Positions 27,501 to 51,857 of a stretch of DNA of 64,000 bases are shown piece by piece. The translations under genes were made by a program, and so were the position numbers. The notes under the pieces are model-generated. The model made no database searches. It was not told where the DNA came from and saw nothing but the letters and a program-made list of their open reading frames with translations. Every line of letters starts with the position of its first letter. The stretch's first letter is position 1. Source of the stretch: an uncultured Methanosarcinales archaeon (GTDB lineage Archaea > Nanobdellota > Nanobdellia > Woesearchaeales > CAXGTL01); the NCBI GenBank assembly GCA_964645705.1, contig CAZYAB010000001.1:16749-80748 (forward strand), written 5' to 3'.

Positions 27501-27783
27501 TGCTATAAATTCTGTGTGGGTTAATTTATTCTTATTTGAACAAAAAAATACAAATTATAAAACAAACAATTTTAAATTGGCCTTAAGTCAACAACATCCT
27601 ATTTTAGATGATGTAGGTAAACAAATAGGTTTTAACATAAACAACGTTGCTTTATACAATGGAAGATTATTTGGTCCTTTGAAAGTATGGGAAGTTAATT
27701 ATCCTGAGAATTTAACATTGTATCCAGAATATCTTCATAAGAGTTATCAAGAGGCAAATATGAGCCATGTTACTGTGATTTGA
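24502..27783 (+). CDS. aglB: archaeal oligosaccharyltransferase AglB (STT3 family) with ~130-aa K/E/Q-rich N-terminal extension
   Basis: WWDYGYW catalytic-site motif (GHWWDYGYWVQTGGERATVGDGGNW). About 13 TM helices precede a large C-terminal soluble domain. Total length 1093 aa. Confidence 0.85.
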   Translation: MQEQSNSNEKIQTNQIKTEQTKQTEQVIQQTNKEINKETDEQKIDKKRKKIIETLKNFFTQEVEEEKQKTEDKTKTSKKIEENKIIGEKKEEQKEKSEEQIEIDMQRKRQEFINFIKKKPINLLYILFILLIPIGYLMYKSGTSSFFLLDIFIPFPINKYGFVSFFLILPIVSCTLLYYKKQAYIALLYIINSGFAIRLQNLPLLKDITTGKYVPLALDPHVFLRYAKYLLEHGKFYAIDSLRYQPFGANMEGYNSTTFLSRFIVFLHKIFRIFNSNQTIEFTDVIYPPVCFAISLIFFFLIVKNLFNKKIAIISTFILCVVPTYLYRTMAGFSDKESLGLMFMFITFYFFILSWKSEKIREVILFGLISGIATGLMGLTWGGVTFVLLIFGIFTFTEILLKKFRKTDYFFYISWIMPMTYIMAFTTNQFGGIIPLLKSFTSGIAYLAFLVATFDFLFFKLKIFKFRDNLSKKLPLGITSTLLSLFFAFIGISIFFGPSFILKKISSVFSDMINPFGKTRWALTVAESHQPYFTNWISDFQWSFIIFFFIGSIILFYYALRPLSKKESFSTNLGIYSAIFALFLIFFSMSRYSRGNAVWNGETILSKTIYIGSFIFFLLVMFLSYLYLFYFDKNTFRKIESIEKKYIFILIWFIIMLVAARSALRLILMLAPITSILTSYFIVFSIKKTQKFSLVMKDKVYKYSLIVLMVFILIIAFWPFASLVNATPLINKVPFINRNGFIINYAALSMSQAKYTGPSYDQQWQLAGKWIRENTSEDAVFGHWWDYGYWVQTGGERATVGDGGNWIGYWNHLMGRHALMGENQTEALEFLNMHNVTHFLIIADEIGKIGAYSSIGSDENYDRYTFIPTFSLNNQLTKETREGMILIYEGVTPVDEDFEFNGVKYYARQAAVKDVYIPIKKITINIGENKTRQDMQIMQPYTLLFQQNQQPLEVPLKCLYYQDQFIEFDKPGLNNCFMVIPTINNQGFDPNGAGLYLGNDAINSVWVNLFLFEQKNTNYKTNNFKLALSQQHPILDDVGKQIGFNINNVALYNGRLFGPLKVWEVNYPENLTLYPEYLHKSYQEANMSHVTVI

Positions 27784-30171: not shown

Positions 30172-32484
30172 ATGGAAAACATAAAAATAAAAGGAACAAA
30201 AAAAAGAAAAAAAAGAAAAAAAGGAAACAGAACATTACAGTTTATTTTTTTATTATTACTTTTAAGTTTAATCTTCTTTTATAAAATCCCTTTTAATTAT
30301 GATGAAATTTTATATAGTGACCATTCTGATCTTATTGGACAATATTCATACTGGAAATATTTTATTAAATCTTCATTTGAACAATATAAGGAAATTCCTT
30401 TGTGGAATCCTTACAGTTTTTCAGGGCAACCTTTTTTAGGTAATTTACATTATCAGGTTTTTTATCCTCCATTCACATTATTTTTATTAATTAATCCTGA
30501 TTTATTATTTGGATATATGTTTATTTTTCATTGTTTTTTAGCAGGCACCTTTATGTTTTTTCTATTGAGAGAATTCAAACTGAATAATTTTAGTTCATTT
30601 ATAGGTGCTATAACTTATATGATTTCATTTAGATTTATCATGCATGTTTATAGTGGTCATTTAAGTATTCTTCCAACTGTAGTTTGTTTGCCTTTGGCAT
30701 TTTTCTTTACAGAAAAGGCAATTAAAAACAAGAGAATTTATTGGGCATCATTATCCGGATTAACATTAGGAATACAATTTTTAGGTGCACACACACAATA
30801 TTTTTTTTATACTTGTTTTTTTATTTCATGTTATATAATTTTTTCATCACTAACAAGACTTAAAATTAAAAAAATAATTCTATTACTATTAACAACATTT
30901 ATTATAACCACCCTCATAGCTTCTATACAATTAATACCATCATATGAATTTTCAAGATATAGTACAAGGAGCAGTGGTCTTGATACAGAATCAAGTATAA
31001 AATTTTCTCTACCTCCGTATGAGATAATATCTTTTATAATACCCAAATTCTTTGGTGATCCAAGAAATAATACTTATTTTGGTAGGTGGAATATAACCGA
31101 AACTGCGGCATATATTGGCGTCCTTCCTTTTATATTTGCATTGGTTACTATTTTTATTATCAATAGAAAAAATCATTATCAATATAAGGATTATAGAATT
31201 TATAAATATTTCTTCACGTTTTCTACAATTTTTTCATTATTATTTGCATTTGGTAAGTATACTCCATTATTTTGGTTTTTCTATAAATTTATTCCAGGAT
31301 TTAATTTCTTTAGAGGGCCATCTAAGATGTTGTTTTTTTATGTCTTTTTTATGATAATTCTTGCATCAATAGGTTTTGATTGGTTCTTGAAACATAGAAA
31401 TAGTAATCAAATTAAAAGAATAAAAAAGGTTTTAGCAACTATCCTTATTATATCATTATTATGCATTACTGTTTCATTTATATTAAGAGATAGAATAATA
31501 AATTTGGGTGAGGAGCTTGTTTCAAATCTTTATCTAAATAATCCTCAAAGTAACAGAATAGTTGGGGAAAATCTAGATTTTTTTATTAGTAAAGTTCCTC
31601 AAATTTATTACCATATTCTTGTTCAGTTAATTCTTTTTACAATATTACTAATTTTATCGTTTTTAGTTTTTTATAATGCTCTAAAAAATAAGAAGATCTT
31701 TTTTTTGCTTATTTTATTTGTAATTTTATTCGATTTAACATTATTTAGTGCAACATTTATACAAACAAAACCAATAATAGATGTTTTTAAATCAAATGGA
31801 CATTTAAATACAATAAAAATTGATATGGTGGACAATGGTCAAATATTCAGGATATTGGATTTATCTGGTTTATTACCACAGCACATCACCATTAGACATA
31901 ATATACAAAAGACACTTGGCTATGACCCGATGATATTAAATGATTATTATAATTATATTCATGAATTGGGAAATGGTCCTAATAGAAATTTAGAAGTGAT
32001 AAATATAAATAAAGTGAGCAATCATACAATGTTGAATTGGCTTAATGTTAAATATATTATAGATAAAGATAGTAAATTAGTTATGAACAAAGGTTATTTG
32101 CCAAGAGCATTTTTTTCAGAGGATGGATCTAAAGCTGAAATAGAATTTTATTCACCAAATAAAATAATAGTCAATACAAGTGGTAGAATAGGTGAATTAA
32201 TATTGTGCGAAAACTATTTCCCTGGTTGGAAAGCTTATATTAATAATGAATCAGAAAAGAATAATAAAATAAATGTATATAAAGTAAATAGAATTTTTAG
32301 AGCAGTAAACGTAAACAAACCAACTAATAAAGTAATATTTGTTTATGATCCTTTAAGTTATAAAATTGGGAAAATTCTTTCTTTAATAGGAATTATTATT
32401 GTTCTCTTCATCTTTTTTTTAGATAGAAAAAAAATTAAAGAAGCAAATTCAAATGAAATTAAAAAGAAAAATCAAGAAAAGTAG
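30172..32484 (+). CDS. YfhO-like polytopic membrane protein (putative GT-C glycosyltransferase)
   Basis: About 12 N-terminal TM helices, a ~200-aa extracytoplasmic C-domain, a final TM and a K-rich tail. This topology is typical of the YfhO family. Confidence 0.45.
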   Translation: MENIKIKGTKKRKKRKKGNRTLQFIFLLLLLSLIFFYKIPFNYDEILYSDHSDLIGQYSYWKYFIKSSFEQYKEIPLWNPYSFSGQPFLGNLHYQVFYPPFTLFLLINPDLLFGYMFIFHCFLAGTFMFFLLREFKLNNFSSFIGAITYMISFRFIMHVYSGHLSILPTVVCLPLAFFFTEKAIKNKRIYWASLSGLTLGIQFLGAHTQYFFYTCFFISCYIIFSSLTRLKIKKIILLLLTTFIITTLIASIQLIPSYEFSRYSTRSSGLDTESSIKFSLPPYEIISFIIPKFFGDPRNNTYFGRWNITETAAYIGVLPFIFALVTIFIINRKNHYQYKDYRIYKYFFTFSTIFSLLFAFGKYTPLFWFFYKFIPGFNFFRGPSKMLFFYVFFMIILASIGFDWFLKHRNSNQIKRIKKVLATILIISLLCITVSFILRDRIINLGEELVSNLYLNNPQSNRIVGENLDFFISKVPQIYYHILVQLILFTILLILSFLVFYNALKNKKIFFLLILFVILFDLTLFSATFIQTKPIIDVFKSNGHLNTIKIDMVDNGQIFRILDLSGLLPQHITIRHNIQKTLGYDPMILNDYYNYIHELGNGPNRNLEVININKVSNHTMLNWLNVKYIIDKDSKLVMNKGYLPRAFFSEDGSKAEIEFYSPNKIIVNTSGRIGELILCENYFPGWKAYINNESEKNNKINVYKVNRIFRAVNVNKPTNKVIFVYDPLSYKIGKILSLIGIIIVLFIFFLDRKKIKEANSNEIKKKNQEK

Positions 32485-35527: not shown

Positions 35528-36472
35528 TTATTTCCTATTCCTATATACTTCAATTGTTTTTATCAAACCTTTTTCTAGTGAAGTTTTTGTTCTCCATTTT
35601 AATAATTTAAATGCTTTTTTTGTATCTGCTTGATATTCCATTAATTCATTTTTTCTATATGGTAAGGATGTAATTATTTTAGATTTACTTTTAGTTAATT
35701 TAATCACGTTTTCAGCAACATCTATAAGTTTGTGCTGTTTTCCACTACCAATATTTATTATTTCAAAATTGCTTTTTTTATTTTTCAATGTTTTTATAAT
35801 GGCATCAACAGCATCATTTACATAAGTAAATTCTCTTTTTTGTTCGCCTTTTGTCATTATAATATCTTTATTTTTTAGGGCATTGTTTATTATGGCGTGT
35901 ATAAATGTATTTGTATTTTGATTTGGTCCATAAATTAAGAAGAATCTTAATGTTGTTATTGGTTTGTTATATGTTCTTGAGAATAAATTGCAATAAGTTT
36001 CACTACATATTTTAGAAGCTGAATAAGGTGAAACGGGATTTGGTTTCATACCCTCTTTAAAAGGAACCTTATGGCTTGAATATACTTCTGCCGTACTTAT
36101 ATTTATGAATTTATCATAGTTTATATCTTTTGAAGCCACGAGTAAATTTAACGTACCAATAACATTGTTTTCAAAAGTTTCTTCTAAATTTTTAATATCT
36201 CTAGAAGGATCAGCCAAAGCAGCGAGATGGATAATATACTTTGGTTTTATTCTTCTTAATGCTCTAGATAATCTTTTAAAATTTGTAATATCTATTTTTA
36301 GAATTCTCTTAGAATCTAATAATTTTATGTATTTTTTTATTTTTTTTATTTCTTTTCTATTTTTCACAATCCCATAAATTATATAGTCTTCTTTTAGAAG
36401 TTTTTTTATTAGATTTTTACCTATGAACCCCGAGATTCCAGTTATAAGAATTTTTTTACTTGATTTCTCCAT
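35528..36472 (-). CDS. NAD-dependent epimerase/dehydratase (extended SDR)
   Basis: KILITGISGFIGKNL (GxxGxxG) and YSASKICSETYC (YxxxK). Confidence 0.7.
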   Translation of the reverse strand: MEKSSKKILITGISGFIGKNLIKKLLKEDYIIYGIVKNRKEIKKIKKYIKLLDSKRILKIDITNFKRLSRALRRIKPKYIIHLAALADPSRDIKNLEETFENNVIGTLNLLVASKDINYDKFINISTAEVYSSHKVPFKEGMKPNPVSPYSASKICSETYCNLFSRTYNKPITTLRFFLIYGPNQNTNTFIHAIINNALKNKDIIMTKGEQKREFTYVNDAVDAIIKTLKNKKSNFEIINIGSGKQHKLIDVAENVIKLTKSKSKIITSLPYRKNELMEYQADTKKAFKLLKWRTKTSLEKGLIKTIEVYRNRK

Positions 36473-36497
36473 TTGACACTAAACCCCTTATATAATT

Positions 36498-37577
36498 TTA
36501 TTGATTAATATTCTCATAATCTTCTATCTGTTCTATGCATAAATTATAAACTTCTTCATTTTCACTTCTCTTGTACCACTCTGCTGTTTTTTTCATTGTT
36601 TGTTCTATGTTAAATTTATTATACCAATTTAATAGGTTCTTTGATTTTGTATTATCTAGAGAGAGTAATTTTGTTTCTTTCATTTTTTCATTAGGATCAC
36701 TTTTGTCTATCCATTGTCCACTTCCCCAATATTGTATTGCAAAATCTGCTATTTTGTTTACTTGTACGATTGCTTCTTTATCAGGCCCAAAATTCCAAGC
36801 TTCTGCAAATTTATTTTTATTTTGTAATAATTTCACCCCTAATAATAAATATCCATAATTACATTCTAATACGTGTTGCCATGGTCTTACTGCGGAAGGA
36901 TTTCTAATTTCAATAGGGTTATTTTGTTTTAAACGTCTTATACAATCAGGGATCAACCTATCTTTTGACCAATCTCCACCGCCAATAACATTTCCAGCTC
37001 TTGCTGAAGCAACAAGTTTGTTTGAATGATTAAAGAATGATTTCCTGTATGAGTTAATTATTATTTCAGCACAAGCTTTGCTTGCACTATATGGGTCAGA
37101 TCCCCCTAATTCATCAGTTTCTTTGTACCCTTGTTCTTGTTCTTTATTTTTATAACATTTATCAGTTGTAATTATGACTCCTGCTTTAACAAAATCAAAT
37201 ATTTTAATGCATTCAAGAATATTTACTGTTCCAATTATGTTTGTTTTTAATGTATTGACAGGGTCTACAAACGACGTCCTCACTATTGGCTGAGCAGCTA
37301 AATGAAAAACAATCTCTGGTCTATGCTCTTCAAATACTTTTTTTAATTTATTTAGGTCAGTAATATCCCCTCTTATATCAATTACTGAATTCAGTCTAGA
37401 TTTAGAATTTTTAAATATATAATCATTATCCCATTCTGGAAGAGAATAACCAATAACATTTGCACCAAGTTTATCTAACCATATTAAAAGCCAACTACCT
37501 TTAAATCCTGTGTGGCCTGTTATTAAAACTTTTTTTCCCTTGTAAACATCATTTAGTTGGCTATTCATATTAATCAC
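36498..37577 (-). CDS. rfbG: CDP-glucose 4,6-dehydratase
   Basis: KVLITGHTGFKGSWLLIWLDKLGANVIGYSL is the RfbG N-terminal signature. YSASKACAE provides the YxxxK. Length 359 aa. Confidence 0.8.
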   Translation of the reverse strand: MINMNSQLNDVYKGKKVLITGHTGFKGSWLLIWLDKLGANVIGYSLPEWDNDYIFKNSKSRLNSVIDIRGDITDLNKLKKVFEEHRPEIVFHLAAQPIVRTSFVDPVNTLKTNIIGTVNILECIKIFDFVKAGVIITTDKCYKNKEQEQGYKETDELGGSDPYSASKACAEIIINSYRKSFFNHSNKLVASARAGNVIGGGDWSKDRLIPDCIRRLKQNNPIEIRNPSAVRPWQHVLECNYGYLLLGVKLLQNKNKFAEAWNFGPDKEAIVQVNKIADFAIQYWGSGQWIDKSDPNEKMKETKLLSLDNTKSKNLLNWYNKFNIEQTMKKTAEWYKRSENEEVYNLCIEQIEDYENINQ

Positions 37578-37601
37578 ACATATTGTATATTAATCCTAAA
37601 C

Positions 37602-38381
37602 TTAATCCCACATTTTCCACGGCGCGTTTTTTGATTTATAAAGTTCATTTAATAAATTAACTTGACGAATAGTGTCCATACATTGCCAGAAACCATCGTG
37701 TTTATATGCTGTAAATTGTCCGTCTTTTGATAATTTTTTTAATGGTTCTGCTTCAAGCTCACACTTTTCATCAAAACTTAAATAATCAAAAAAATCTTTT
37801 TTAAATGTAAAAAATCCCCCATCAATTCTTCCATTATGAACCAAGTTTTTTTTAGTAAAATCAGTAATCTGATGTCCTTTTTTTTCTATATCTAATAAAC
37901 CAAACCTTGCCACAGGCCTTACAGCAGTAACTGTTCCTATTTTATGGTGCGCTTTGTGAAAGTCTAATAGACTTTTTATGTTAATGTCACTTACCCCATC
38001 CCCATAAGTTAAAAAGAAATTATCTTCATTTACATATTTTTCAATTCTTTTAATTCTGCTTCCTGTAAGTGTATTAAGCCCTGTTTCTGCAAAAATTATA
38101 TTCCAATCTTCAACATTTGAATTATGAATTGTAATTTGTTTTCTTTTTAAATTAAGTGTAAAATCACTACTTTTTTGTTCATAGTTTAAAAAGAAATCCT
38201 TAATCATGTCTCCTTTATAACCTAAACACAAAACAAAATCATTGAATCCATAATGTGAGTATATCTTCATTATATGCCATAAAATAGGCATGCCACCAAC
38301 TCTAACTAAAGGTTTAGGAATAAATTCAGTATGTTCTCTTAACCTTGTTCCGCGTCCACCGCATAAAATTACAGTTTTCAT
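37602..38381 (-). CDS. rfbF: glucose-1-phosphate cytidylyltransferase
   Basis: MKTVILCGGRGTRLREHTEFIPKPLVRVGGMPILWHIMKIYSHYGFNDFVLCLGYKG closely matches the RfbF consensus. Length 259 aa. Confidence 0.85.
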   Translation of the reverse strand: MKTVILCGGRGTRLREHTEFIPKPLVRVGGMPILWHIMKIYSHYGFNDFVLCLGYKGDMIKDFFLNYEQKSSDFTLNLKRKQITIHNSNVEDWNIIFAETGLNTLTGSRIKRIEKYVNEDNFFLTYGDGVSDINIKSLLDFHKAHHKIGTVTAVRPVARFGLLDIEKKGHQITDFTKKNLVHNGRIDGGFFTFKKDFFDYLSFDEKCELEAEPLKKLSKDGQFTAYKHDGFWQCMDTIRQVNLLNELYKSKNAPWKMWD

Positions 38382-38630: not shown

Positions 38631-40163
38631 ATGAAAGATATTAAAGAAGAGAATAAAGCAGCTGAAGTAATTGTAAAAGGAGCAGGTTATGTGTTTGTGG
38701 GTATGATTGTTTCTAAGTTGTTAACATATATTTATCGGATAATTATTGCAAGAATTGGAACTGAGGAATATGGCATTTTATCTTTAGGCTTAGCTATTTT
38801 AGGAATTATTAGTATTTTCCCTATTTTTGGTCTTGATAGTGGTGTTTTGAGATTTGTATCGGATTGCGTAACTAAAGACAATAAGAACAAAGCAAAACAA
38901 ATTATAATAAATTGTTTAGCAATCATTATACCAATAAGTCTTTTGATTAGTATTTTTTTATTTTTATTTTCTGAAAATATCTCTTACTTTTTTAATGAAC
39001 CAAGGTTAATTAATGTAATAAAATTATTAGCTATTTGTTTACCATTTATAGGGATAGGAAATATCTTTTTGTCAACAATTAGTTCATTTAAAAATACAAA
39101 ACATTTTGTTTTAATAAAAAATATATTAGAAAATATTATTAAAATCTTAGTTACAGCATTTCTTGTTTTTTTGGGATTGAATTATATTGGCGCAACAATA
39201 GGTTATGTTATTTCAATAGTATCTACAGGGATAATAGCATTCTTATTTGTTAATAAAAATATGTTAAGATTTACTTTTTCAAATATTAAAGTACATTTGA
39301 TTGATAAGGCAATTCTAGTTTATTCTGTACCTTTAATGTTTAATATGTTAATCTCACAAGTAATTGGTTGGACAGACGTAATTATGATTGGATTCTTTAG
39401 AACAGGTTCAGAAGTAGGAATTTATAATGCTGCTTTACCAACATCAACACTTATTTATATTATTCCTTCTGGTTTAATTGCTCTTTTTATTCCTGTGATG
39501 AGTAGTTTGTTTCTAAATAAAAATTTTGAACAATTTAGAAGCACTAGCAAAGATATAACAAAGTGGATTTTTTATATTAATTTACCAGTTACTTTATTAA
39601 TTATTGTATTCTCTAAACACATCTTAAAATTCCTTTTTGGAACAGATTATGTTGTAGGTTATTCCTCTTTAATCATATTGGTAGTAGGTTTTTTTATTTA
39701 TCATCTCTTTTTAACTTCATCCAGAACATTAAATATAATTAAAAAATCAGAAATAATAATGTCAAATATGATGATTGCAGCGATATTGAATATAATAATT
39801 AATTTCATATTAATTCCCAAAATAGGAATTCTTGGAGGGGCAATAGCAACAGCATTAAGTATGATAGTGCATGGTTTACTTAATGGTATATATTCTTTTT
39901 ATTATACTAAAATAATTCCTTTTAGTCTAAGCTATTTTAAAGCATTTTTTGCAGCTATTATTTCACTTTTTATTATGGTCTTTATTATTAAAATCTTTTA
40001 TATAGAATCAATTTATTTTCTTTTAGTTTTGGCTTTATTATTTCTTGTCGTATACACAATTTTGATTATTATCTTTAAGTGTTTAAATGATAGGGATTAT
40101 CATTTAATCAATTTAATGAGATTAAAAGCATTTAATAATGTTAGTAAATATTTTAGAAAATAA
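38631..40163 (+). CDS. oligosaccharide flippase, MOP/Wzx (AglR-like) polysaccharide biosynthesis protein
   Basis: 510 aa with ~14 TM helices, typical Wzx size and topology. It sits divergent from the rfb operon. Confidence 0.65.
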   Translation: MKDIKEENKAAEVIVKGAGYVFVGMIVSKLLTYIYRIIIARIGTEEYGILSLGLAILGIISIFPIFGLDSGVLRFVSDCVTKDNKNKAKQIIINCLAIIIPISLLISIFLFLFSENISYFFNEPRLINVIKLLAICLPFIGIGNIFLSTISSFKNTKHFVLIKNILENIIKILVTAFLVFLGLNYIGATIGYVISIVSTGIIAFLFVNKNMLRFTFSNIKVHLIDKAILVYSVPLMFNMLISQVIGWTDVIMIGFFRTGSEVGIYNAALPTSTLIYIIPSGLIALFIPVMSSLFLNKNFEQFRSTSKDITKWIFYINLPVTLLIIVFSKHILKFLFGTDYVVGYSSLIILVVGFFIYHLFLTSSRTLNIIKKSEIIMSNMMIAAILNIIINFILIPKIGILGGAIATALSMIVHGLLNGIYSFYYTKIIPFSLSYFKAFFAAIISLFIMVFIIKIFYIESIYFLLVLALLFLVVYTILIIIFKCLNDRDYHLINLMRLKAFNNVSKYFRK

Positions 40164-40226: not shown

Positions 40227-41039
40227 TTAGTAATAATGTTCTTTACTTATTATTCTTGCTGCTTCTTTTTCTTGATAATCCATAAATCTTTCAAGTCCCC
40301 CATAATATATATTAATTAAACTAAATACAAATATGCTAGGAAACAAAATTCCATACAAATAAAGAATAATGTCCAATCTATTAATAATGGCAAATACACA
40401 AATAACATTCATCATTGCTGGGGTTTTAGTTATGATAAATATTTTCCTTAATATTTGCATCAATTTATCAGATAAAATCCCTTTTGTTTTTTCTTTACCA
40501 GTCTCTTTAGTTTTCTTTTTTTGTTTAATAGTATAATTCATTTTTCTTTTAATGACTCTGTAATCTGTGAAAGATGCATATTTAGTATACATTGTTACTA
40601 AATTTAAACCTTGGAATGCAATAGCAGATAACCCAAAATATAATAGTGTTTTATCTCCTGTGGAATTAAATACGCCAATGGTTAATCCAACAAATACAAG
40701 TACACTCATTGTAAAGTTATTCATGTTGTCAATATAACTCCCTCTTGGAGATGATTGTTTTTTAAATCTTGCAATATTCCCATCTACCGAGTCAAAAATA
40801 TGCCAAAGTTGATAAAATACTACGGCTAATAGAGAATAATAATAGTTCCCTAATGAGAACAAAAATATATAGATCACTCCTATTATCATAGCAAAGAGGG
40901 TTGCTTGTGTTGCCGTAATTGAGGTGTGTAATAATAACCATGCAATTCTTATTGCAATTCTTCTAGTAACTAAATAAGAATAATAAGGTCTTTTGTTCTT
41001 TTTAACACTTATTTCTTTAAGTTCTTTGAATTTGATCAT
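40227..41039 (-). CDS. CDP-alcohol phosphatidyltransferase family protein
   Basis: DSVDGNIARFKKQSSPRGSYIDNMNNF matches D-x2-DG-x2-AR…G…D. About 6 TM helices. Confidence 0.65.
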   Translation of the reverse strand: MIKFKELKEISVKKNKRPYYSYLVTRRIAIRIAWLLLHTSITATQATLFAMIIGVIYIFLFSLGNYYYSLLAVVFYQLWHIFDSVDGNIARFKKQSSPRGSYIDNMNNFTMSVLVFVGLTIGVFNSTGDKTLLYFGLSAIAFQGLNLVTMYTKYASFTDYRVIKRKMNYTIKQKKKTKETGKEKTKGILSDKLMQILRKIFIITKTPAMMNVICVFAIINRLDIILYLYGILFPSIFVFSLINIYYGGLERFMDYQEKEAARIISKEHYY

Positions 41040-41041
41040 TT

Positions 41042-41875
41042 TTACATTCTTATACTATGCATAGCATTATTATTATAATTATTATTTTTACTATTGTTAT
41101 TTGGAGTATCATTTTCCTCTTTCTCAATCATTTTTATTTTAACTTGTGCATCCCTGTAGTCCCCCAAATCATCTACTTCACACCACAACATAGTTGAAGA
41201 AACAACTTTATAATCATGATCTTTTATCATTCTTTGCAATGCTTTTAAATAAAATACATTTATGACATTATCATCAACTAATTTCTTAATTTCACTAAAG
41301 AATCTTTGTGAACCTAGTTTACCAAATTTGTATATTCCTATTGCATCACCGTGTGTTTGTTCATCTTCGATTGTCTTTCCTATATCTATTATTTTATCAT
41401 TGCTAATACTTACTCTCATTGCATCTCCTCTATCTTTAGTTGTTTTATCAATTATTGCTGCGTCTTCATGAGGTGATATAATCAAGTTATGCAATATTTT
41501 ATAATTAAATATATCATCACCATTAATTAAAATAAATTCATTACCATCTAAATGCTCTTTAGCAAGCCATACAGAATATATATTATTTGTGGAGTTATAT
41601 ACAGGACTATGCACATAAGTTATTTGTAGACCTTTATAGTTATTACCTATTAACTGTCTTACTGCACCGGCAGCATGACCTGTAACAAGCACAGCTTCAT
41701 TTATAATTTGATTATGTACATTACATCTTATGATTCTATCAAGTATGTGTTCTATTATACTTTTTCCACCTACAGTCAAGAGTCCTTTAGGTATATTCTC
41801 AGTTAATGGGTGTAATCTTTTTCCCTGTCCTGCTAATAATATTAATGCTTTCATTGATTTTCCCTCAATAGGCAA
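41042..41875 (-). CDS. sugar/alcohol-phosphate nucleotidyl(cytidylyl)transferase (LicC/IPCT-like)
   Basis: MKALILLAGQGKRLHPLTENIPKGLLTVGGKSII is an NTP-transferase G-rich loop. It lies 3 nt upstream of the CDP-alcohol PT gene. The C-terminus is N-rich low complexity. Confidence 0.65.
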   Translation of the reverse strand: MPIEGKSMKALILLAGQGKRLHPLTENIPKGLLTVGGKSIIEHILDRIIRCNVHNQIINEAVLVTGHAAGAVRQLIGNNYKGLQITYVHSPVYNSTNNIYSVWLAKEHLDGNEFILINGDDIFNYKILHNLIISPHEDAAIIDKTTKDRGDAMRVSISNDKIIDIGKTIEDEQTHGDAIGIYKFGKLGSQRFFSEIKKLVDDNVINVFYLKALQRMIKDHDYKVVSSTMLWCEVDDLGDYRDAQVKIKMIEKEENDTPNNNSKNNNYNNNAMHSIRM

Positions 41876-41895: not shown

Positions 41896-43767
41896 TTAAT
41901 TTTTCGTTTTATCTATAAATATTCTAAACCAAAGCTCTAAATTTATCAATCTCCAGACATATTCTGTTTTTGAATAAGGTGATTCTATAAGTTTGATTAT
42001 TTCATTTTTATTAAAATATCCTCTATTAAGACATTTTTTACTTAATAAAATCTTCCTTGCATAATCTTTTAAAGGCCCTTCAATCCATTTTTCTATGGGT
42101 GTTCTAAAACCTACTTTTTTTCTATTTATTATTTTCTTTGGGATAATACCTTTTAAAGATTCTTTTAAAAGATATTTATTTGTCCTGTATCTCTTTTTAT
42201 AATTATAGGGCATTTGTGTTATAAATTCAAAAACTTCATGATCAAGAAAAGGGACTCTTCCTTCTACAGAGGCGGCCATCGTCATTTTATCAATTCTCAT
42301 AAGAAGAGATACAAGATGATTTTTCGCATCATAATAAAGCAGTCTATCAATTACTTTCATTTGATTTAGCTTTTTGAAGGAATTAAGAAAATCTTTTTTG
42401 ATAGGGGATTCTTTTATGATATGTTTCATTTTATTTGTCAATAATCTTAAAGTAATATCATCATTGAAATATAAATGATAAAAAAATTCACTTGATTTGT
42501 TATTTAGTAGGTTTTCAATTACTCTTGAAAAAGTATGTCCTCTTCCAGTTTTTTTTGATATTAATTTTATAGATCTGAGAACTATCTTATTAGGTAAAAA
42601 TCTAAGTAATTTATTTAGAATGTAATATAATTTATATCTATCATATTTAGGATATCCTGCAAATAGTTCATCAGCCCCTTCTCCAGATAAAACAACAGTA
42701 AAATATTTTTTTAATTCTTTTGACATAAAATAAATAGCAATTTCATTAGGAACTTCTAAAGGTCCATCTCTATGCCAAATGAGTTTTTTTATTGTGTTTG
42801 TATAATCTTTTATATTTAAAATAGATTCATGATGATCTGTTTTAAATTTCTTTACGATTAAGTTAGCATATTTTCGTTCGTCATATTTATTTCCTTCTGA
42901 AAATGCAATGGTGAATGTTTTTACTTTCTTGTTATATTTACTTAAAAAAGCAACAATAGCACTAGAATCAAGTCCGCCACTTAAAAAAGCACCAATTGCA
43001 ACATCTGAAATCATTCTTTTTTTAATTGAACTATCAAGTATAAAATTAAACTTTTTTTTTGCACTTGAAAAAGAAATTCTTTTCTTTTGTGTAGACAAAC
43101 TCCAATATCTCTTTTTAATTATCTTTTTTTCAGAGATAATCATATATGTTCCTGGCAATATCTTTTTTACATTTGATAAGAGAGTTTTTTCACTAAGAGT
43201 ATACCTTAAAGAAATGTATTCATATACTGCAATTTTTTCTATTGATTTATCTATTTTTGGGTATTCTAATATAGATTTTATTTCAGATGCAAAGACTAAT
43301 TTTTTTTTATCTAAATAATAATAAAGTGGTTTTATACCTAATCTATCTCTTGCTAAAAATAATCTTTTTTTATTCGAATCATAAACACAAAAAGCAAACA
43401 TACCATTAAATAGTTTCAAACATTTTTCTCCAAACTCTTCATAAGCATGGATTATAACCTCAGAATCAGTATTGGATCTGAATTTATGTCCTTTAAATTC
43501 TAGTTGTTTTTTAATATCTTTATAATTATATATTTCTCCATTATAAGTAATCCATATTGTTTTATCTTCATTACACATTGGTTGTTTTGCTTTTTTACTT
43601 AGATCAATAATACTTAATCTTCTATGACCCAGTCCCACATTCTTATCGATAAAAATACCTCTATCATCTGGACCTCTATGTTTCATTATGTCAGTTATTT
43701 TATTGAGGATTTTTCTATTAATTTTTTTATTTTTATCAAATTTATATATCCCACAGATTCCACACAT
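41896..43767 (-). CDS. asnB: asparagine synthetase (glutamine-hydrolysing), AsnB family amidotransferase
   Basis: MCGICGIY (Ntn Cys2), SGGLDSS PP-loop. Length 623 aa. Confidence 0.85.
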   Translation of the reverse strand: MCGICGIYKFDKNKKINRKILNKITDIMKHRGPDDRGIFIDKNVGLGHRRLSIIDLSKKAKQPMCNEDKTIWITYNGEIYNYKDIKKQLEFKGHKFRSNTDSEVIIHAYEEFGEKCLKLFNGMFAFCVYDSNKKRLFLARDRLGIKPLYYYLDKKKLVFASEIKSILEYPKIDKSIEKIAVYEYISLRYTLSEKTLLSNVKKILPGTYMIISEKKIIKKRYWSLSTQKKRISFSSAKKKFNFILDSSIKKRMISDVAIGAFLSGGLDSSAIVAFLSKYNKKVKTFTIAFSEGNKYDERKYANLIVKKFKTDHHESILNIKDYTNTIKKLIWHRDGPLEVPNEIAIYFMSKELKKYFTVVLSGEGADELFAGYPKYDRYKLYYILNKLLRFLPNKIVLRSIKLISKKTGRGHTFSRVIENLLNNKSSEFFYHLYFNDDITLRLLTNKMKHIIKESPIKKDFLNSFKKLNQMKVIDRLLYYDAKNHLVSLLMRIDKMTMAASVEGRVPFLDHEVFEFITQMPYNYKKRYRTNKYLLKESLKGIIPKKIINRKKVGFRTPIEKWIEGPLKDYARKILLSKKCLNRGYFNKNEIIKLIESPYSKTEYVWRLINLELWFRIFIDKTKN

Positions 43768-43792: not shown

Positions 43793-44407
43793 TTATATTT
43801 TATCTTCGTTTAATTTATAACAATGATAAATTAATCTACCATTTCTATTTTTTAAATTCTTAATTTTTTTCTCATTTAAATCTGCATAATGCCATGGTTT
43901 TTCAATTAAGTCTTTAGGAAATGTTTTAGGGTAAGAAAGAACCCCTTTCTTAAGATTTTTTAACCAGTTACGTATGTAAATTAATTTATTCCATTTTTTC
44001 AATTGCTTCTCTTGAATTGATGAGTCGAATAATCCATATTTTACTAATATTTTTAATTGATTATTTCTAAAACTTAAACCAGGAAATCTCCAACCAACAA
44101 TCTTTATTCTATGTTTGTTGAATACATCTATTGTTTTTTTTATTATTTTTTTGGCTTTTCTATAATTCAGTTTTGCAAAATCCTCATGATAATAACCATG
44201 CCCCCCAATAATATGTCCTAATTTTTCAATTTGTTTAACCTTTTCAGGATATTTCTCAACTAAATAACCACAAATATAGAACTCACCAATCACTTGTTTC
44301 TTAATTAATAACTTTGCGAATTTAACACCATTATCAATACGTTTTTCAACATCCATTGTAAAGATCTTTTCATTTTTGTTTGTAATTTTATTTTTCATCT
44401 TAATCAT
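43793..44407 (-). CDS. polysaccharide deacetylase (CE4)-like protein
   Basis: TMDVE (cf. TFDDG), HGYYHED (HxxxH) and WRFPG (RxPY-like), in the order expected for CE4. The match is weak. Confidence 0.4.
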   Translation of the reverse strand: MIKMKNKITNKNEKIFTMDVEKRIDNGVKFAKLLIKKQVIGEFYICGYLVEKYPEKVKQIEKLGHIIGGHGYYHEDFAKLNYRKAKKIIKKTIDVFNKHRIKIVGWRFPGLSFRNNQLKILVKYGLFDSSIQEKQLKKWNKLIYIRNWLKNLKKGVLSYPKTFPKDLIEKPWHYADLNEKKIKNLKNRNGRLIYHCYKLNEDKI

Positions 44408-45177: not shown

Positions 45178-46059
45178 TCAAAGTTTATGTTCTATTTTTT
45201 TGTTTTCCAAATATTTTTCCAATACCTTCAAATATTTTTTAGATTGTTCTTCCCAAGTTCCTGAATTTTTTTTATACCATTTATAACAATCATTTGCAAC
45301 TTTATCTGCTATTTTTTTATTTTTCAACAAAAACCTAATTCCTTTTCCTAAATCTTTGGAATAATAAGCAGGATAACCAATATCTTGTGAGTAATTTGGT
45401 TTGATTGCAACAACTGGTTTTTTCATTGCTGCATAATCATACATTTTTATGCTTGAATCCCATGAAATAGGATAAACACATAATTTTGATTTAGCAATCA
45501 TCTCTGGTAATTGTTCAACACGTAATCCAGACATAATTTTTAATTTGATATTATCTCTTTTACATTCCTTAACAAGTTTTGGAAGATTATATATGGGGTG
45601 AACTTGCCCGATATAACAAACATCATATTCAAATTCATTATTCCCAACTTTAATCGGTAGAAAGTTGCTTCCATTGCAAATATAATCATCACAACCATAC
45701 TTTCTAAAATTACAATAACTAGATGAAGTCATATAATCGTGATTATTTCTAAAGAACCAAATTATCCTTTCTAATTTATACAAAGCAAAATGATCAGTTA
45801 AATCATGCACAAAAATACATTTGCCAGAATAGACTATGTGGTGCAAACTAGTTATAATACCAGCAATTTTTCCTATAGAAATAATAATGTCGGGTTTAAA
45901 TTTTGCAAATATATACAAATATTTCCACCAATCTTGTTTATAGATATATTTAACATTGTGGCCTAATGTTTTAAATAAATAAGGTAACCTAGTCCACCTA
46001 TGTTTAGATTTATGTAAATGATAAGGTACAGAATCATGACTTATAATTAATATTTTCAT
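45178..46059 (-). CDS. putative GT-B fold glycosyltransferase (divergent)
   Basis: MKILIISHDS start and a C-terminal region typical of GT4-like enzymes (KLCVYPIS…KPVVA), but no clean E-x7-E. Confidence 0.35.
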   Translation of the reverse strand: MKILIISHDSVPYHLHKSKHRWTRLPYLFKTLGHNVKYIYKQDWWKYLYIFAKFKPDIIISIGKIAGIITSLHHIVYSGKCIFVHDLTDHFALYKLERIIWFFRNNHDYMTSSSYCNFRKYGCDDYICNGSNFLPIKVGNNEFEYDVCYIGQVHPIYNLPKLVKECKRDNIKLKIMSGLRVEQLPEMIAKSKLCVYPISWDSSIKMYDYAAMKKPVVAIKPNYSQDIGYPAYYSKDLGKGIRFLLKNKKIADKVANDCYKWYKKNSGTWEEQSKKYLKVLEKYLENKKIEHKL

Positions 46060-50447: not shown

Positions 50448-51857
50448 ATGACAAAGATACTTTTAATCTATCCAAACATTGTAGAATCCCCTAAAGATAT
50501 ATCATTAGGTTTAGCCACAATATCAGCACTGCTTAAAAAACATAAACATGATGTGCAGCTTCTTGACTCAACGTTCTCGCCAATAACAAAAAATCAAATA
50601 AAACAAAAACTATATTCATTCAGACCAGATTTAGTAGGAATAACAGCTGCAACTAATGATTTTCATTATGCAATACACATTTGTAAACAAATAAAGCACA
50701 TAAATCCTAAAATATCAATCATATGCGGCGGATATCATGCAACTATTGCGCCTGATGATATTATTAAACAGGACTGTTTTGACATGTGTTGTATTGGTGA
50801 AGGTGAATATCCTTTTCTTGAATTAGCTAATAGTATTAGTAGGGGAAAAGTGAATAAAAATATTAAGAATATTTGGTTTAAAGTTGGTAATAGAATAAAA
50901 AAAAATAAACTACGTCCACTAGTAAAAGATCTAGACAAATTACCTTTTCCAGATAGAGTATTATTTGATTTCAGCACATATCTTGATTATAATAAAGGAA
51001 TTGCAACATTTATGGCTTCAAAAGGATGTCCTTTTGCATGTGCACATTGTATTAATAATTTTTTGATTAAAAAGTATAAAGGTTTAGGAAAATATTTAAG
51101 GTTTAGAACAGCTGATTCAATAATTAAAGAGATCAAACAAGTGCTTCAAAAATTTGGTGGAATTATAAAAGAAATAGAATTTTATGATGATACTTTTACT
51201 CTGAATAAACGACTTGTAAAAGAATTTAGTAAAAAATATAAAAATGAAATTGGAATTCCATTTAATATTAATATTAGGGCAGGAAGTGTTACAAAAAAAG
51301 ACCTTATCCATCTAAAGCAAGCTGGTTGTGTTCGCGTTTCTATTGGTTTGGAATCCGGTGACGGATTCATAAGAAATAAAATATTAAAAAGATACCAAAC
51401 AGAAAATCAAATAATAGATACATTTAAATGGGCACGTGAATCCGGATTACAAACATATTCTTTTAATATGGTTGGTATTCCTTATGAAACAAAAGAAACA
51501 ATAAAAAGAACAATAGAGTTGAATAAAAAATGCAAACCCGATTTTGTTGGTGTTTCAATATTCAATGCATATAAAGGAACAGAACTTTATGATTTGTGTG
51601 AAAAGAATGGTTGGTTAATAAAAGACATTGCTGCAAAGTCTTATTTCCAATCAACAAATGTAAAACTGCCAACAGTTTCTATAAAGCAATTAAAAAAAAT
51701 AAGAGATAAATTTGGATTTTTAGTATACAAAGATTCAAGACCACTCAGAGCATATTTAGATTTATTTGACAAAACCTTTATAAAAATACCAGGATATCTG
51801 AAATCAAGATCCTTCATAACAAAATTAGGCATGAAAAAATTATTAAAAAAATTATAA
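50448..51857 (+). CDS. B12-binding domain radical SAM protein (class B radical SAM)
   Basis: N-terminal B12-binding domain (ILLIYPN…VGITAATND…CGGYHAT) and CPFACAHC (CxxxCxxC). Confidence 0.8.
   Translation: MTKILLIYPNIVESPKDISLGLATISALLKKHKHDVQLLDSTFSPITKNQIKQKLYSFRPDLVGITAATNDFHYAIHICKQIKHINPKISIICGGYHATIAPDDIIKQDCFDMCCIGEGEYPFLELANSISRGKVNKNIKNIWFKVGNRIKKNKLRPLVKDLDKLPFPDRVLFDFSTYLDYNKGIATFMASKGCPFACAHCINNFLIKKYKGLGKYLRFRTADSIIKEIKQVLQKFGGIIKEIEFYDDTFTLNKRLVKEFSKKYKNEIGIPFNINIRAGSVTKKDLIHLKQAGCVRVSIGLESGDGFIRNKILKRYQTENQIIDTFKWARESGLQTYSFNMVGIPYETKETIKRTIELNKKCKPDFVGVSIFNAYKGTELYDLCEKNGWLIKDIAAKSYFQSTNVKLPTVSIKQLKKIRDKFGFLVYKDSRPLRAYLDLFDKTFIKIPGYLKSRSFITKLGMKKLLKKL

Follow-up and report, generated by a model that had tools for sequence, protein, structure and literature searches.

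CDP-alcohol phosphotransferases (CDP-APs) have the signature D1xxD2G1xxAR...G2xxxD3xxxD4, which is described as eight absolutely conserved residues; the last aspartate (D4) is the proposed catalytic base. In the PIP synthase of M. tuberculosis, D93N, the change equivalent to D4, nearly abolishes activity (PMC4634129). In CHPT1 and CEPT1 of the Kennedy pathway, four aspartates are kept as the ligands of two Mg2+ ions, and a histidine next to D3, rather than D4, was proposed to be the proton acceptor (PMC10182977). This implies that the catalytic base is not fixed in the superfamily. CHPT1 and CEPT1 have a lipid acceptor (diacylglycerol) and TM helices beyond the six-TM core. AF2299 from Archaeoglobus fulgidus (PDB 4o6m, 4o6n, and 4q7c) has a small polar donor pocket that is suited to soluble CDP-alcohols, and both AF2299 and DIPPS are described as preferring soluble donors, CDP-glycerol and CDP-inositol (PMC4634129).

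In bifunctional IPCT/DIPPS (inositol-1-phosphate cytidylyltransferase and DIP-phosphate synthase; PDB 4mnd; model NF041135), a cytidylyltransferase domain is followed by a CDP-AP domain in a single protein. Two other nucleotidyltransferases, the CTP:phosphocholine cytidylyltransferase LicC and the phosphonate-specific cytidylyltransferase PntC, activate small head groups for decoration of the cell surface. LicC acts with a choline kinase (LicA) and the phosphotransferase LicD, not with a CDP-AP. Both LicC and PntC contact the amine of their substrates with two acidic residues (D105 and D192 in LicC, E104 and E196 in PntC; PMC6697681). In bacteria, gene clusters that contain a Ppm-PntC fusion, a second PntC, and CDP-OH_P_transf genes ("Burkholderiales_CDP-OH") are known bioinformatically and are annotated as "Group 1 phosphonolipid" (PMC8942020, PMC5987646); the phosphonolipids predicted for these clusters were never characterised (PMC8942020). 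In the phosphonate literature, the step by which phosphonates activated with CMP, and similar head groups, are placed on molecules of the cell surface is still called enigmatic.

Here we analyse a nucleotidyltransferase and a CDP-AP that are encoded next to each other in a 64-kb stretch of DNA (the window) from an uncultured, probably DPANN, archaeon. What is new, as read from alignments, is that the CDP-AP belongs to a subfamily that replaces the fourth aspartate of the signature, the proposed catalytic base, mostly with histidine.

The gene pair and its neighbourhood

The nucleotidyltransferase (41042-41854) and the CDP-AP (40227-41039) are both encoded on the minus strand, and each is 270 amino acids long. 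Both open reading frames were verified. PF00483 (NTP_transferase) matches the open reading frame at 41042-41875 with 53.3 bits (cutoff 21.2; E = 3.8e-14), and PF01066 (CDP-OH_P_transf) matches the CDP-AP with 35.2 bits (cutoff 22; E = 2e-08). This confirms the adjacent pair that was reported in an earlier note on this DNA. The spacer was given there as 3 nt and is actually 2 nt: the nucleotidyltransferase ends with a TAA at 41042-41044, the CDP-AP starts with an ATG at 41039, and the spacer occupies 41040-41041 on the minus strand (TAA-AA-ATG). So short a spacer suggests that the two genes are co-transcribed and translationally coupled.

The mechanically called reading frame of the nucleotidyltransferase runs to a TTG at 41875. 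The true start is likely the ATG at 41854 (MKALILLAGQGKRL), because a GAGGGA motif lies ~8 nt upstream of it and because all of the homologues start there. The protein ends in an asparagine-rich disordered tail.

An AsnB-type glutamine-dependent amidotransferase (41896-43767, minus strand; PF00733, 307 bits; TIGR01536, 517.6 bits) is encoded 41 nt upstream of the start of the nucleotidyltransferase. It has the same orientation as the pair and probably belongs to one operon with it. The first gene of this same-strand run encodes a polysaccharide deacetylase or DUF2334-like protein (43793-44407, minus strand; PF01522, 47.9 bits). Beyond the CDP-AP, and convergent with it, is a Wzx/MOP flippase (38631-40163, plus strand; PF01943, 113.7 bits). 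The pair had been placed between a flippase and AsnB in a glycan cluster, and the surrounding genes agree with this: the cluster includes AglB/STT3 (24502-27783, ~12 kb from the pair) as well as GT2, GT4, PMT_2-like, methyltransferase, and radical-SAM genes. It also includes a CDP-glucose pathway, with a glucose-1-phosphate cytidylyltransferase (37602-38381; 329 bits, equivalog cutoff 300) that is 1.8 kb from the CDP-AP and has dehydratase and epimerase genes beside it.

Scans of the window for tRNAs and for Rfam families found nothing. A scan for promoters and terminators gave hits at the level of shuffled sequence; its models are of bacterial type, and the host is archaeal and AT-rich. The window is ~26% GC and encodes a NAC domain. 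The NAC domain and AglB point to an archaeal host, and the GC content together with the nearest homologues makes it a probable member of DPANN.

The nucleotidyltransferase is related to LicC and PntC

Among solved structures, LicC and PntC are nearest to the nucleotidyltransferase, both by profile and by fold. A profile of its subfamily scored 120.6 bits against LicC (1jyk) and 114 bits against PntC (6pd1), versus 75, 73, and 72.6 bits against the IPCT structures 2xme, 4jd0, and 4mnd. An AF2 model (pLDDT 89.7) had its best Foldseek matches to PntC (6pd2; TMq 0.81) and LicC (TMq 0.74). Also, the motif NN(I/F)YS is common to LicC and the nucleotidyltransferase. By these comparisons, the protein groups with LicC and PntC rather than with IPCT. 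It preserves the catalytic motifs (G-x-G-x-R-L, PK, GDD, and E-x-D).

The amine-binding acids of LicC and PntC are missing from the nucleotidyltransferase, and so is most of the aromatic box that binds choline. In our sequence alignment, in which we adjusted one LicC column manually to fit its published equivalence to E104 of PntC (PMC6697681), D105 and D192 of LicC correspond to Asn and Leu, and the aromatic box (Y85, W136, and Y190) corresponds to Thr, Met, and Phe. By alignment, a cassette from Woesearchaeota that has a predicted amine head group keeps Glu or Asp at both acid positions. Given the loss of the acids and of most of the box, phosphocholine and aminoethylphosphonate are disfavoured as substrates. 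NCBI assigns a homologue to the "phosphocholine cytidylyltransferase family"; given the pocket residues, we did not adopt phosphocholine as the substrate assignment.

The earlier note had likened the pair to LicC-type systems, had listed phosphocholine among the possible decorations, and had suggested comparing the substrate pocket with that of LicC. The likeness holds at the level of the family, as the nucleotidyltransferase scores nearest to LicC. It does not extend to the pocket, whose residues argue against a phosphocholine decoration, or to the transferase, as LicC systems use LicD instead of a CDP-AP. A search for an inositol-1-phosphate synthase or a choline kinase had been suggested as well, and it came up empty: among the Pfam-scanned open reading frames of the 64-kb window, there was no match to the choline-kinase or LicD families and no inositol-phosphate synthase. 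PEP mutase and phosphonopyruvate decarboxylase (Ppd) are both absent from the window, which has no gene for the synthesis of a head group.

We also compared the pair to the bifunctional IPCT/DIPPS model, NF041135. The nucleotidyltransferase aligns to positions 1-216 of the model and the CDP-AP aligns to positions 217-413, so the genes follow the order of the domains, although they are separate. In this respect, the description of the pair as arranged like a split IPCT/DIPPS was apt. However, the scores are just 65 bits and 44.6 bits against a cutoff of 580, and together with the affinity of the nucleotidyltransferase for LicC and PntC, this rules out that the proteins are IPCT/DIPPS. The pair also differs from IPCT/DIPPS in that D4 is gone from the CDP-AP and in that it lies in a glycan cluster instead of an osmolyte setting.

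The CDP-AP belongs to an AF2299-like subfamily

AF2299 is the best match to the CDP-AP by sequence, by profile, and by fold. It was the top hit among sequences from the PDB (E = 5.9e-12). A profile of the CDP-AP's family scored 119.5 bits against AF2299, 64 bits against DIPPS, and 49 bits against PIPS, and it matched CHPT1 and CEPT1 weakly (28-40 bits). The AF2 model (pLDDT 92) was most similar to AF2299 (Foldseek E = 5e-6; TMq 0.57-0.59), and the top matches were AF2299, PgsA1, DIPPS, and PIPS. The model has helices at residues 43-62, 66-93, 98-127, 130-171, 188-218, and 222-269, plus N-terminal helices. This gives a predicted six-TM core with a juxtamembrane helix, and the signature lies on TM2 and TM3. 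AF2299 and the CDP-AP share the six-TM core and the signature as far as D3 (D1xxD2GxxAR...GxxxD3), with ~20% identity over the fold, but AF2299 also has an N-terminal cytosolic domain and the canonical fourth aspartate, and the CDP-AP has neither.

The CDP-AP is not a core archaeal lipid synthase: it scored 42.2 bits against the model for archaetidylinositol-phosphate synthase (NF040950; cutoff 180) and 18.6 bits against the model for archaetidylserine synthase (pssA; cutoff 107), and both scores are far under the equivalog cutoffs. The earlier note would have given up its reading if the transferase clustered with the core-lipid synthases; this did not occur, and the nearest solved relative is AF2299. 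Across 93 members of the family, the best E-values were ~1e-22 for both the archaetidylinositol-phosphate synthase and the DIPPS models, so the family is about equidistant from the two.

We defined the subfamily as AF2299-like, stand-alone CDP-APs of ~240-300 amino acids that lack a cytosolic domain. With the CDP-AP as query, a word-indexed search gave 3 proteins. By searching exhaustively through a library of representatives (clustered at 50% identity), we found 708 members at E <= 1e-10, and the top matches were 26-36% identical over nearly their full length. The window's CDP-AP scored 254 bits against the subfamily's HMM, whose alignment includes it. Fusions of a nucleotidyltransferase to the CDP-AP were absent from the best 150 matches. 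The reading frame of the window's CDP-AP is intact, and the protein is 99.6-100% identical in independent samples.

Replacement of the fourth aspartate

The translated signature of the CDP-AP (40716-40793, minus strand) is D83-S-V-D86-G87-N-I-A90-R91-(x8)-G100-(x3)-D104-(x3)-N108. Seven of the eight signature residues are kept (D1, D2, G, A, R, G, and D3), and Asn108 (codon 40716-40718) takes the place of D4. Profile alignments place Asn108 in the same column as D4 of AF2299, DIPPS, and PgsA1. The missing aspartate was passed over in the earlier note.

Aspartate is rare at this position throughout the subfamily: of 147 representatives, 91 have His in the D4 column and just 12 have Asp. In alignment A1, His has a frequency of 65% in this column, and Asn has a frequency of 86% in the (D/N)xx(T/S) motif of TM1. 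Among the CDP-APs of the related loci (see below), 55 of those with the motif found have His at D4. The column also varies (G, N, T, E, or S), and Gly (loci L044 and L012) and Glu (L003) occur within intact cassettes. There was no obvious correlation across the loci between the residue at D4 and the type of cassette.

The window's CDP-AP departs even from the consensus of its own subfamily, with Asn108 instead of His and Thr44 instead of Asn; the latter change lies in the cytosine-contacting motif. It also has Asn instead of Glu88 and Ala instead of Thr33. Because the fourth aspartate is His in most members of the family and Asn in the window's CDP-AP, catalysis must, judging from these residues, differ in detail from that of the canonical CDP-APs. 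A large subfamily without D4, in which some members have residues that are unable to act as a base, is relevant to the superfamily's mechanism, which is not yet settled.

Gene neighbourhoods of the subfamily

To collect related loci, we scanned contigs by means of a 13-sequence alignment. The pattern VDGE[IV]AR[YF][RK] leaves out DGN variants such as the window's CDP-AP, so the 77 loci, which are from DPANN, ANME, and Asgard archaea and from many bacteria, are biased towards DGE members. In 37 of the 77 loci, a LicC/PntC-like nucleotidyltransferase is encoded within 5 kb of the CDP-AP. In 17 loci, the two genes are within 100 nt and on the same strand, with the nucleotidyltransferase upstream in 16 of these. 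The pairing is above chance. At about half of the loci of the family, we did not see a LicC-like nucleotidyltransferase within the DNA that was covered, nor did we find one, with the same scope, at P0004 or P0006, which encode the closest homologues of the CDP-AP. At P0004, the closest of all, the CDP-AP has five GT4 genes on one side and a Wzx on the other, and this Wzx is convergent with it, as in the window.

The other neighbours are often glycan genes: GT4 was found in 33 loci, Wzx in 21 (within 5 kb), and GT2 in 21. AsnB was found near the CDP-AP in 5 loci, including the window, and in L004, a deacetylase follows the orthologous nucleotidyltransferase as well. In two loci with 51%-identical nucleotidyltransferases, a CDP-AP of the family is 1-3 genes away, within a glycan cluster. 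L009 and L055 resemble the window in having a glucose-1-phosphate-cytidylyltransferase-like gene, one or more epimerases, Wzx, and the CDP-AP together; L009 encodes two CDP-APs, and we saw a LicC-like nucleotidyltransferase near neither of them.

Some of the loci also encode ways to make a head group. PEP mutase is present in 12 of the related loci and Ppd in 9, and fusions of PEP mutase to the nucleotidyltransferase occur along with Ppd. In some loci, a SerK-like kinase is fused to the nucleotidyltransferase, alongside a CobD-like decarboxylase. Others encode a methyl-phosphoramidate-like set, which resembles the MeOPN pathway of C. jejuni (PMC11800397): a PRK05849-type protein and a GATase that matched gamma-glutamyl-CDP-amidate hydrolase best. 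The presence of head-group pathways with glycosyltransferases and Wzx supports the activation and transfer of a phospho-head-group.

Cassettes that are similar to the Group 1 phosphonolipid clusters contain the window CDP-AP's own subfamily (L044, L027, L037, L078, L031, and L012). These clusters and the window have the same module of a LicC/PntC-like nucleotidyltransferase and a CDP-AP, but the window lacks the phosphonate genes, and its module is in an archaeal cluster of AglB, Wzx, and other glycan genes.

Proposed function and alternatives

We propose that the two genes form a cassette by which a phospho-head-group is first activated and then transferred, and we give this proposal about an even chance of being right. 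Given its family membership, the LicC/PntC-type nucleotidyltransferase would join CTP and a small compound X-P to form CDP-X, where X-P would be phosphorylated or, less likely, phosphonylated. The six-TM CDP-AP would hold CDP and Mg2+ via D83, D86, D104, and the G, A, and R residues of the signature, and it would move P-X to a hydroxyl group on the cytoplasmic side of the membrane, with release of CMP. As in CHPT1 and CEPT1, a small head group would be moved from a soluble CDP-alcohol. Judging from the context, the acceptor would most likely be a lipid-linked oligosaccharide, which would then be flipped by the adjacent Wzx, and the surface glycan would gain a phosphodiester-linked substituent. 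Since the acids that bind the amine in LicC and PntC are missing from the pocket, and since the cluster contains no dedicated gene for the synthesis of X-P, choline, ethanolamine, aminoethylphosphonate, and inositol are less likely as X than a common metabolite that is neutral or anionic, for example one of the glycerol-phosphate type. Several observations weigh against the proposal: the lack of a gene for head-group synthesis in the 64-kb window; Asn at D4 and the other departures from the subfamily consensus, which may mean that activity was lost; the half or so of the family's loci at which we saw no LicC-like nucleotidyltransferase in the DNA covered; and, for the acceptor, the ~12 kb between the pair and AglB, in a cluster that might act on several glycoconjugates.

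The earlier suggestion of a phospho-alcohol decoration, as opposed to an osmolyte, is the better fit to the glycosyltransferases, Wzx, and head-group pathways across the family, though the N-glycan in particular is only a candidate site of attachment. We know of no phosphodiester decoration of archaeal N-glycans.

The most serious alternative to a glycan decoration is that P-X is transferred to archaeol or to a diacylglycerol-like lipid, in Kennedy-type synthesis of a polar lipid with an unusual head group. CDP-choline and CDP-ethanolamine phosphotransferases carry out exactly this type of transfer (PMC10182977), the CDP-AP is predicted to be embedded in the membrane, and the bacterial clusters with Ppm-PntC and CDP-OH genes are labelled as phosphonolipid clusters (PMC8942020, PMC5987646). 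But those phosphonolipids are only predicted (PMC8942020), and the family's neighbours are mostly glycosyltransferases and Wzx flippases, not lipid genes. Also, CHPT1 and CEPT1, which act on lipids, have extra TM helices, while enzymes built on six TM helices are linked to polar acceptors (PMC4634129). We consider lipid synthesis to be unlikely. Synthesis of a compatible solute such as di-myo-inositol phosphate or diglycerol phosphate, from CDP-X and a soluble phospho-alcohol, would account for the collinearity with the bifunctional IPCT/DIPPS model and for the soluble substrates of the nearest solved transferases, AF2299 and DIPPS. It is very improbable: the scores (65 and 45 bits) fall far short of the cutoff of 580, the nucleotidyltransferase is closer to LicC and PntC than to IPCT, and there is no inositol-phosphate synthase among the scanned open reading frames of the 64-kb window; furthermore, the pair shares a same-strand run with AsnB and the deacetylase among glycan genes, and across the family the association is with glycosyltransferases and Wzx.

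The donor might instead be a CDP-hexose from the adjacent CDP-glucose pathway, with the CDP-AP moving a (deoxy)hexose-1-phosphate and the LicC-like nucleotidyltransferase not being its sole or main source of substrate. The glucose-1-phosphate cytidylyltransferase (329 bits versus 300) is 1.8 kb away with a dehydratase and an epimerase alongside, a similar set of genes recurs in L009 and L055, and the CDP-APs of L009 have no LicC-like partner nearby. However, the window's CDP-AP is coupled at 2 nt to a LicC/PntC-like gene, which is the partner across the family, and the arrangement with CDP-glucose genes, which is common to three DPANN genomes, may be inherited synteny. Furthermore, we know of no CDP-AP that uses a CDP-sugar. 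This makes a CDP-hexose donor improbable. We assign a similarly low probability to the idea that the CDP-AP is a pseudo-enzyme, catalytically dead or decaying. In its favour, D93N at the same position nearly abolishes the activity of PIP synthase (PMC4634129), and the protein is off the consensus at four positions (N44T, E88N, H108N, and T33A). On the other hand, the gene is intact, tightly coupled, and 99.6-100% identical in independent samples; every metal-binding and CDP-binding residue of the signature is kept; the AF2 model is confident (pLDDT 92); and the D4 column varies across the family (G, N, T, E, or S), with Gly (L044 and L012) or Glu (L003) in cassettes that are intact.

Tentatively, and with more doubt than confidence, we suggest that the stand-alone AF2299-like CDP-APs without D4 are the missing transferases of "phosphoryl/phosphonyl tailoring", which would accept any CMP- or CDP-activated head group from the neighbouring LicC/PntC-type enzyme and load it onto lipid-linked glycans before Wzx flips them, and would do so without the canonical aspartate base. 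The head groups could include aminoethylphosphonate, hydroxyethylphosphonate, phosphoramidate, and phosphoethanolamine, and in the window, the group could be one without an amine. The subfamily is a concrete and testable candidate for the transfer step that is called enigmatic. For archaeal glycobiology, the cassette predicts that a surface glycan of this uncultured and probably DPANN archaeon carries a phosphodiester substituent. If the tailoring suggestion were true, then a probable DPANN archaeon would have a surface glycan or an N-linked glycan decorated with phosphodiesters.

Gene pair and surroundings

Both genes that the earlier note had described lie on the minus strand, and their coordinates are exactly those it gave. 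The CDP-alcohol phosphotransferase (CDP-AP; 40227-41039, 270 amino acids) matches CDP-OH_P_transf in Pfam (35.2 bits; cutoff 22). The nucleotidyltransferase, whose ORF extends mechanically over 41042-41875, matches NTP_transferase (53.3 bits; cutoff 21.2). The TTG at 41875 is the mechanical start; the ATG at 41854 is preceded by a GAGGGA motif and gives an N-terminus (MKALILLAGQGKRL) that is common to all homologs. The two genes are coupled, with a spacer of 2 nt (...ATG TAA AA ATG...) rather than 3 nt as first reported. Both proteins are identical in two further public assemblies that contain the same contig. The C-terminal tail of the nucleotidyltransferase (residues about 250-270; 41042-41104, minus strand) is an Asn-rich, low-complexity stretch (NDTPNNNSKNNNYNNN...), which no homolog has and whose low pLDDT (below 50) predicts disorder.

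The setting is a glycan cluster, as had been proposed: Wzx, AsnB, AglB/STT3, and glycosyltransferases are all encoded in the window. The Wzx flippase gene is convergent with the pair, the genes for AsnB and a polysaccharide deacetylase are directly upstream on the same (minus) strand, and AglB/STT3 is at 24502-27783. The cluster also includes several GT2, GT4, and PMT_2-type genes, methyltransferases, radical-SAM enzymes, and a CDP-glucose pathway (35528-38381, minus strand). This pathway comprises a glucose-1-phosphate cytidylyltransferase (329 bits, above the equivalog cutoff of 300), a 4,6-dehydratase-like gene, and an epimerase/reductase, which implies a CDP-activated (deoxy)hexose in the predicted glycan. 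A NAC-domain gene in the window, together with AglB, points to an archaeon, and the GC content of about 26% and the nearest homologs make a member of DPANN likely.

Classification of the two proteins

The best sequence relative of the CDP-AP with a solved structure is AF2299 (E = 5.9e-12), followed by IPCT/DIPPS (the bifunctional inositol-1-phosphate cytidylyltransferase / DIP-phosphate synthase). Its AF2 model (pLDDT 92) is an all-helical membrane protein, and the best structural matches are AF2299, PgsA1, DIPPS, and PIPS. Searched exhaustively, this family yielded 4246 representatives at E<=1e-3, of which 708 reach E<=1e-10. The nearest one outside the query's own cluster is 36% identical, and the top matches are, almost without exception, stand-alone proteins of about 240-300 amino acids. 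A profile of 93 members of this family gave 119.5 bits for AF2299, 64 bits for DIPPS, and about 49 bits for PIP synthases. Against NCBIfam, the family's best E-values (about 1e-22) are alike for the archaetidylinositol-phosphate synthase and DIPPS models; the window's protein reaches 42 bits for the former (cutoff 180) and 45 bits for the latter (cutoff 580). Given these scores and profile matches, the transferase does not cluster with the synthases of core lipid metabolism, which is the grouping that the earlier note had named as contradicting its reading.

The catalytic motifs of the nucleotidyltransferase are intact. A profile of its 14 closest relatives matched LicC (120.6 bits) and the phosphonate-specific PntC (114 bits), and then a sugar-1-phosphate enzyme (83 bits) and three IPCT structures (73-75 bits). 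The closest structures to its AF2 model (pLDDT 89.7) in superposition are PntC (TMq 0.81, rmsd 2.1) and LicC (0.74). These scores and this superposition place the predicted enzyme in the LicC/PntC clade and outside IPCT. The pair is predicted to work like a split IPCT/DIPPS, to whose gene order the earlier note had likened it, but it is not a member, given this clade and the 45 bits of the CDP-AP against a cutoff of 580. It could equally be compared to a phosphate version of the Ppm-PntC/CDP-OH cassettes, yet it is no member of those. By membership tests, the pair belongs to none of IPCT/DIPPS, LicC, or PntC.

The specificity determinants of these enzymes are acids that contact the amine (D105 and D192 in LicC, E104 and E196 in Tde-PntC) and the aromatic box of LicC (PMC6697681). 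In our alignment, Asn and Leu stand in for the acids in the window's nucleotidyltransferase and in two relatives with 51% identity, and Thr/Met/Phe replace Y85/W136/Y190 of LicC. (For the first acid, where MAFFT had displaced LicC by one column, the PntC column was used.) In contrast, both acids are retained, as Glu and Asp, in the nucleotidyltransferases from Woesearchaeota, for whose cassettes an amino-alcohol phosphate is predicted. The alignment thus makes choline, ethanolamine, or AEP a less likely substrate of the window's enzyme.

Conserved cassettes with three kinds of head-group pathway

We fetched 80 loci from species-representative genomes (including Nanoarchaeota, Woesearchaeota, Aenigmatarchaeota, Methanosarcinales/ANME, Asgard archaea, Patescibacteria, Omnitrophota, Dehalococcoidia, Scalindua, and other groups), called ORFs, searched them with HMMs of both proteins, and clustered the neighbors. 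A LicC/PntC-like nucleotidyltransferase (at least 100 bits) lies within 5 kb of the family CDP-AP in at least 37 of 77 loci. It is adjacent and on the same strand in at least 17 of these 77, and upstream in 16 of the 17. These counts are lower bounds because many contigs are short. Other recurrent neighbors are GT4 (33 loci), Wzx (21), GT2 (21), SAM methyltransferases (19), epimerases (17), B12-radical-SAM enzymes within 5 kb (11), DegT (8), and AsnB (5). At the two loci with the 51%-identical nucleotidyltransferases, a family CDP-AP is retained 1-3 genes downstream, and the genes around it encode glycosyltransferases, radical-SAM enzymes, deacetylases, and Wzx. The closest homolog of the CDP-AP (P0004; 36% identity) is preceded by five GT4 genes and a methyltransferase and, like the CDP-AP of the window, is convergent with Wzx; a nucleotidyltransferase was looked for within 6 kb on either side and not found.

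The head-group pathways that accompany this cassette are of three kinds. In the first, fusions of PEP mutase and nucleotidyltransferase accompany phosphonopyruvate decarboxylase and a family CDP-AP (L044 3268-8783, from ANME-1, as well as L027, L037, L078, L031, and L012). Several of these loci encode an Fe-alcohol dehydrogenase, a second nucleotidyltransferase, or both. Altogether, 12 fetched loci, with Asgard archaea among them, encode PEP mutase, and the one in L044 passes its equivalog cutoff (324.8 versus 319.6 bits). The possible link between this CDP-AP subfamily and the transfer step of phosphonyl tailoring is of interest. Clusters of CDP-OH_P_transf with PntC and PEP mutase were previously noted bioinformatically as "Group 1 phosphonolipid" clusters with uncharacterized products (PMC8942020, PMC5987646), and a preprint on Borgs reports that PntC-like and flippase-like genes adjoin a domain-less CDP-AP.

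In the second kind (L020 2857-8828, L028, L051, and L055; from Scalindua, Omnitrophota, and one Woesearchaeon), a PRK05849-type PEP-utilizing protein (815 bits; cutoff 501) and a GATase precede the nucleotidyltransferase and CDP-AP. The best match of the GATase is gamma-glutamyl-CDP-amidate hydrolase (92 bits, below the cutoff of 250). This arrangement resembles the Cj1416-Cj1418 part of the methyl-phosphoramidate pathway of C. jejuni (PMC11800397), but it ends in a family CDP-AP, while the C. jejuni pathway uses Campylobacter transferases.

In the third kind, a CobD-like PLP decarboxylase (TIGR01140, 133.6 bits) adjoins the CDP-AP in four loci from Woesearchaeota or Nanoarchaeota (L026 4690-6992, L059 about 4570-6890, L043, and L072). 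Three of the four have a LicC-like nucleotidyltransferase, and both full-length ones carry a C-terminal extension; the one scanned, in L026, matches part of a SerK-like kinase (NF053625; 47 bits over residues 252-338). This gene content suggests a self-contained route from serine or threonine via a phospho-amino acid and an amino-alcohol phosphate to CDP-X, where X is the head group. Cj1436 is a precedent for decarboxylation of serine phosphate (PMC11800397).

Replacement of a proposed catalytic aspartate

The signature of the window's CDP-AP is D83xxD86G87xxA90R91-x8-G100xxxD104xxxN108, with Asn108 in place of the fourth Asp (D4), so one defining feature of the signature is absent. D4 has been counted among eight residues said to be absolutely conserved and is regarded as the probable catalytic base; the corresponding D93N substitution in PIP synthase from M. 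tuberculosis nearly abolished activity (PMC4634129). In profile alignments, the family's consensus His aligns exactly with D4 of AF2299, DIPPS, and PgsA1. Among 147 representatives with a recognizable motif, this position is His in 91, Asp in 12, Asn in 9, Tyr in 7, Gly in 6, and various others. Among ORFs from the fetched loci in which the motif was found, 55 have His, and others have Gly, Thr, Asn, Glu, or Ser; variants within intact cassettes include Gly (L044, L012) and Glu (L003). From these counts and alignments, the subfamily as a whole has given up the canonical D4. This subfamily-wide loss of an "invariant" catalytic Asp is of interest. A partial precedent is eukaryotic CHPT1, in which a His adjoining D3 is the proposed proton acceptor and D4 is a metal ligand (PMC10182977).

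Proposed reaction and alternatives

The gene pair as such is an unsurprising kind of glycan-tailoring module; the phosphodiester decoration that we predict for a DPANN-type archaeon is of interest. We propose that the nucleotidyltransferase would form CDP-X from CTP and a small X-phosphate, and that the CDP-AP would transfer P-X to a hydroxyl group of an acceptor at the cytoplasmic face of the membrane, releasing CMP, before flipping by Wzx. The sequences show what both proteins are, that their core motifs are intact and their genes coupled, and that the cassette and its glycan-type surroundings are conserved; the use of CTP, the nature of X, the acceptor, and the timing relative to flipping are inferred. 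A lipid-linked oligosaccharide is the most plausible acceptor, because a six-TM architecture goes with polar acceptors (PMC4634129) and the context is dominated by glycosyltransferases and Wzx. We consider it unlikely that the pair instead performs Kennedy-type synthesis of lipid head groups, and very improbable that it makes an osmolyte.

X is probably a common metabolite, because the window and two other loci (L003 and L004) have the same unusual pocket and share no head-group synthesis gene. Our leading guess, with low confidence, is a glycerol-phosphate-type compound; a weak hint comes from an Aenigmatarchaeote, in which a more distant homolog and an Fe-ADH_2-type dehydrogenase are three genes apart. 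Could the donor be a CDP-hexose from the adjacent CDP-glucose pathway? L009 and L055 also combine a similar CDP-glucose gene set with Wzx and a family CDP-AP, and L009 has no LicC-like gene nearby; we still think such a donor quite unlikely. The CDP-AP could also be a dead enzyme. It is an outlier within its own family (Asn108 for His, Asn88 for Glu, Ala33 for Thr), and Thr44 takes the place of Asn in the (D/N)xx(T/S) motif, which contacts cytosine. Its metal- and CDP-binding residues are all retained. A pseudo-enzyme seems rather improbable, and the protein is probably active.

Other genes of the glycan cluster

Three ORFs in the cluster, of 293, 770, and 493 amino acids (45178-46059, minus; 30172-32484, plus; 60196-61677, minus), have no match in Pfam, and the 293-residue one has none in NCBIfam either. 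A B12-binding radical-SAM enzyme (50448-51857, plus) has no NCBIfam match above cutoff; its best ones are HpnJ (174 bits) and PhpK-family P-methyltransferases (120 bits). B12-radical-SAM enzymes near CDP-APs recall the Fom3-type methylation of CMP-activated phosphonates. The next gene (51859-54252, plus; 797 amino acids) encodes a PMT_2/GT-C-type membrane glycosyltransferase domain to which a cyclophilin peptidyl-prolyl isomerase (PF00160, 183.8 bits) is joined at the C-terminal end, an unusual fusion hinting that glycosylation may be coupled to protein folding. A second membrane-associated pair (56815-58639, plus) consists of an LPG_synthase_TM-family protein (115 bits) followed directly by a GT2 glycosyltransferase. 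Just upstream of the glycosylation cluster are two large, probable surface proteins with PKD/Ig-like repeats (13900-17727 and 19662-22613, plus), which are candidate glycoprotein substrates.
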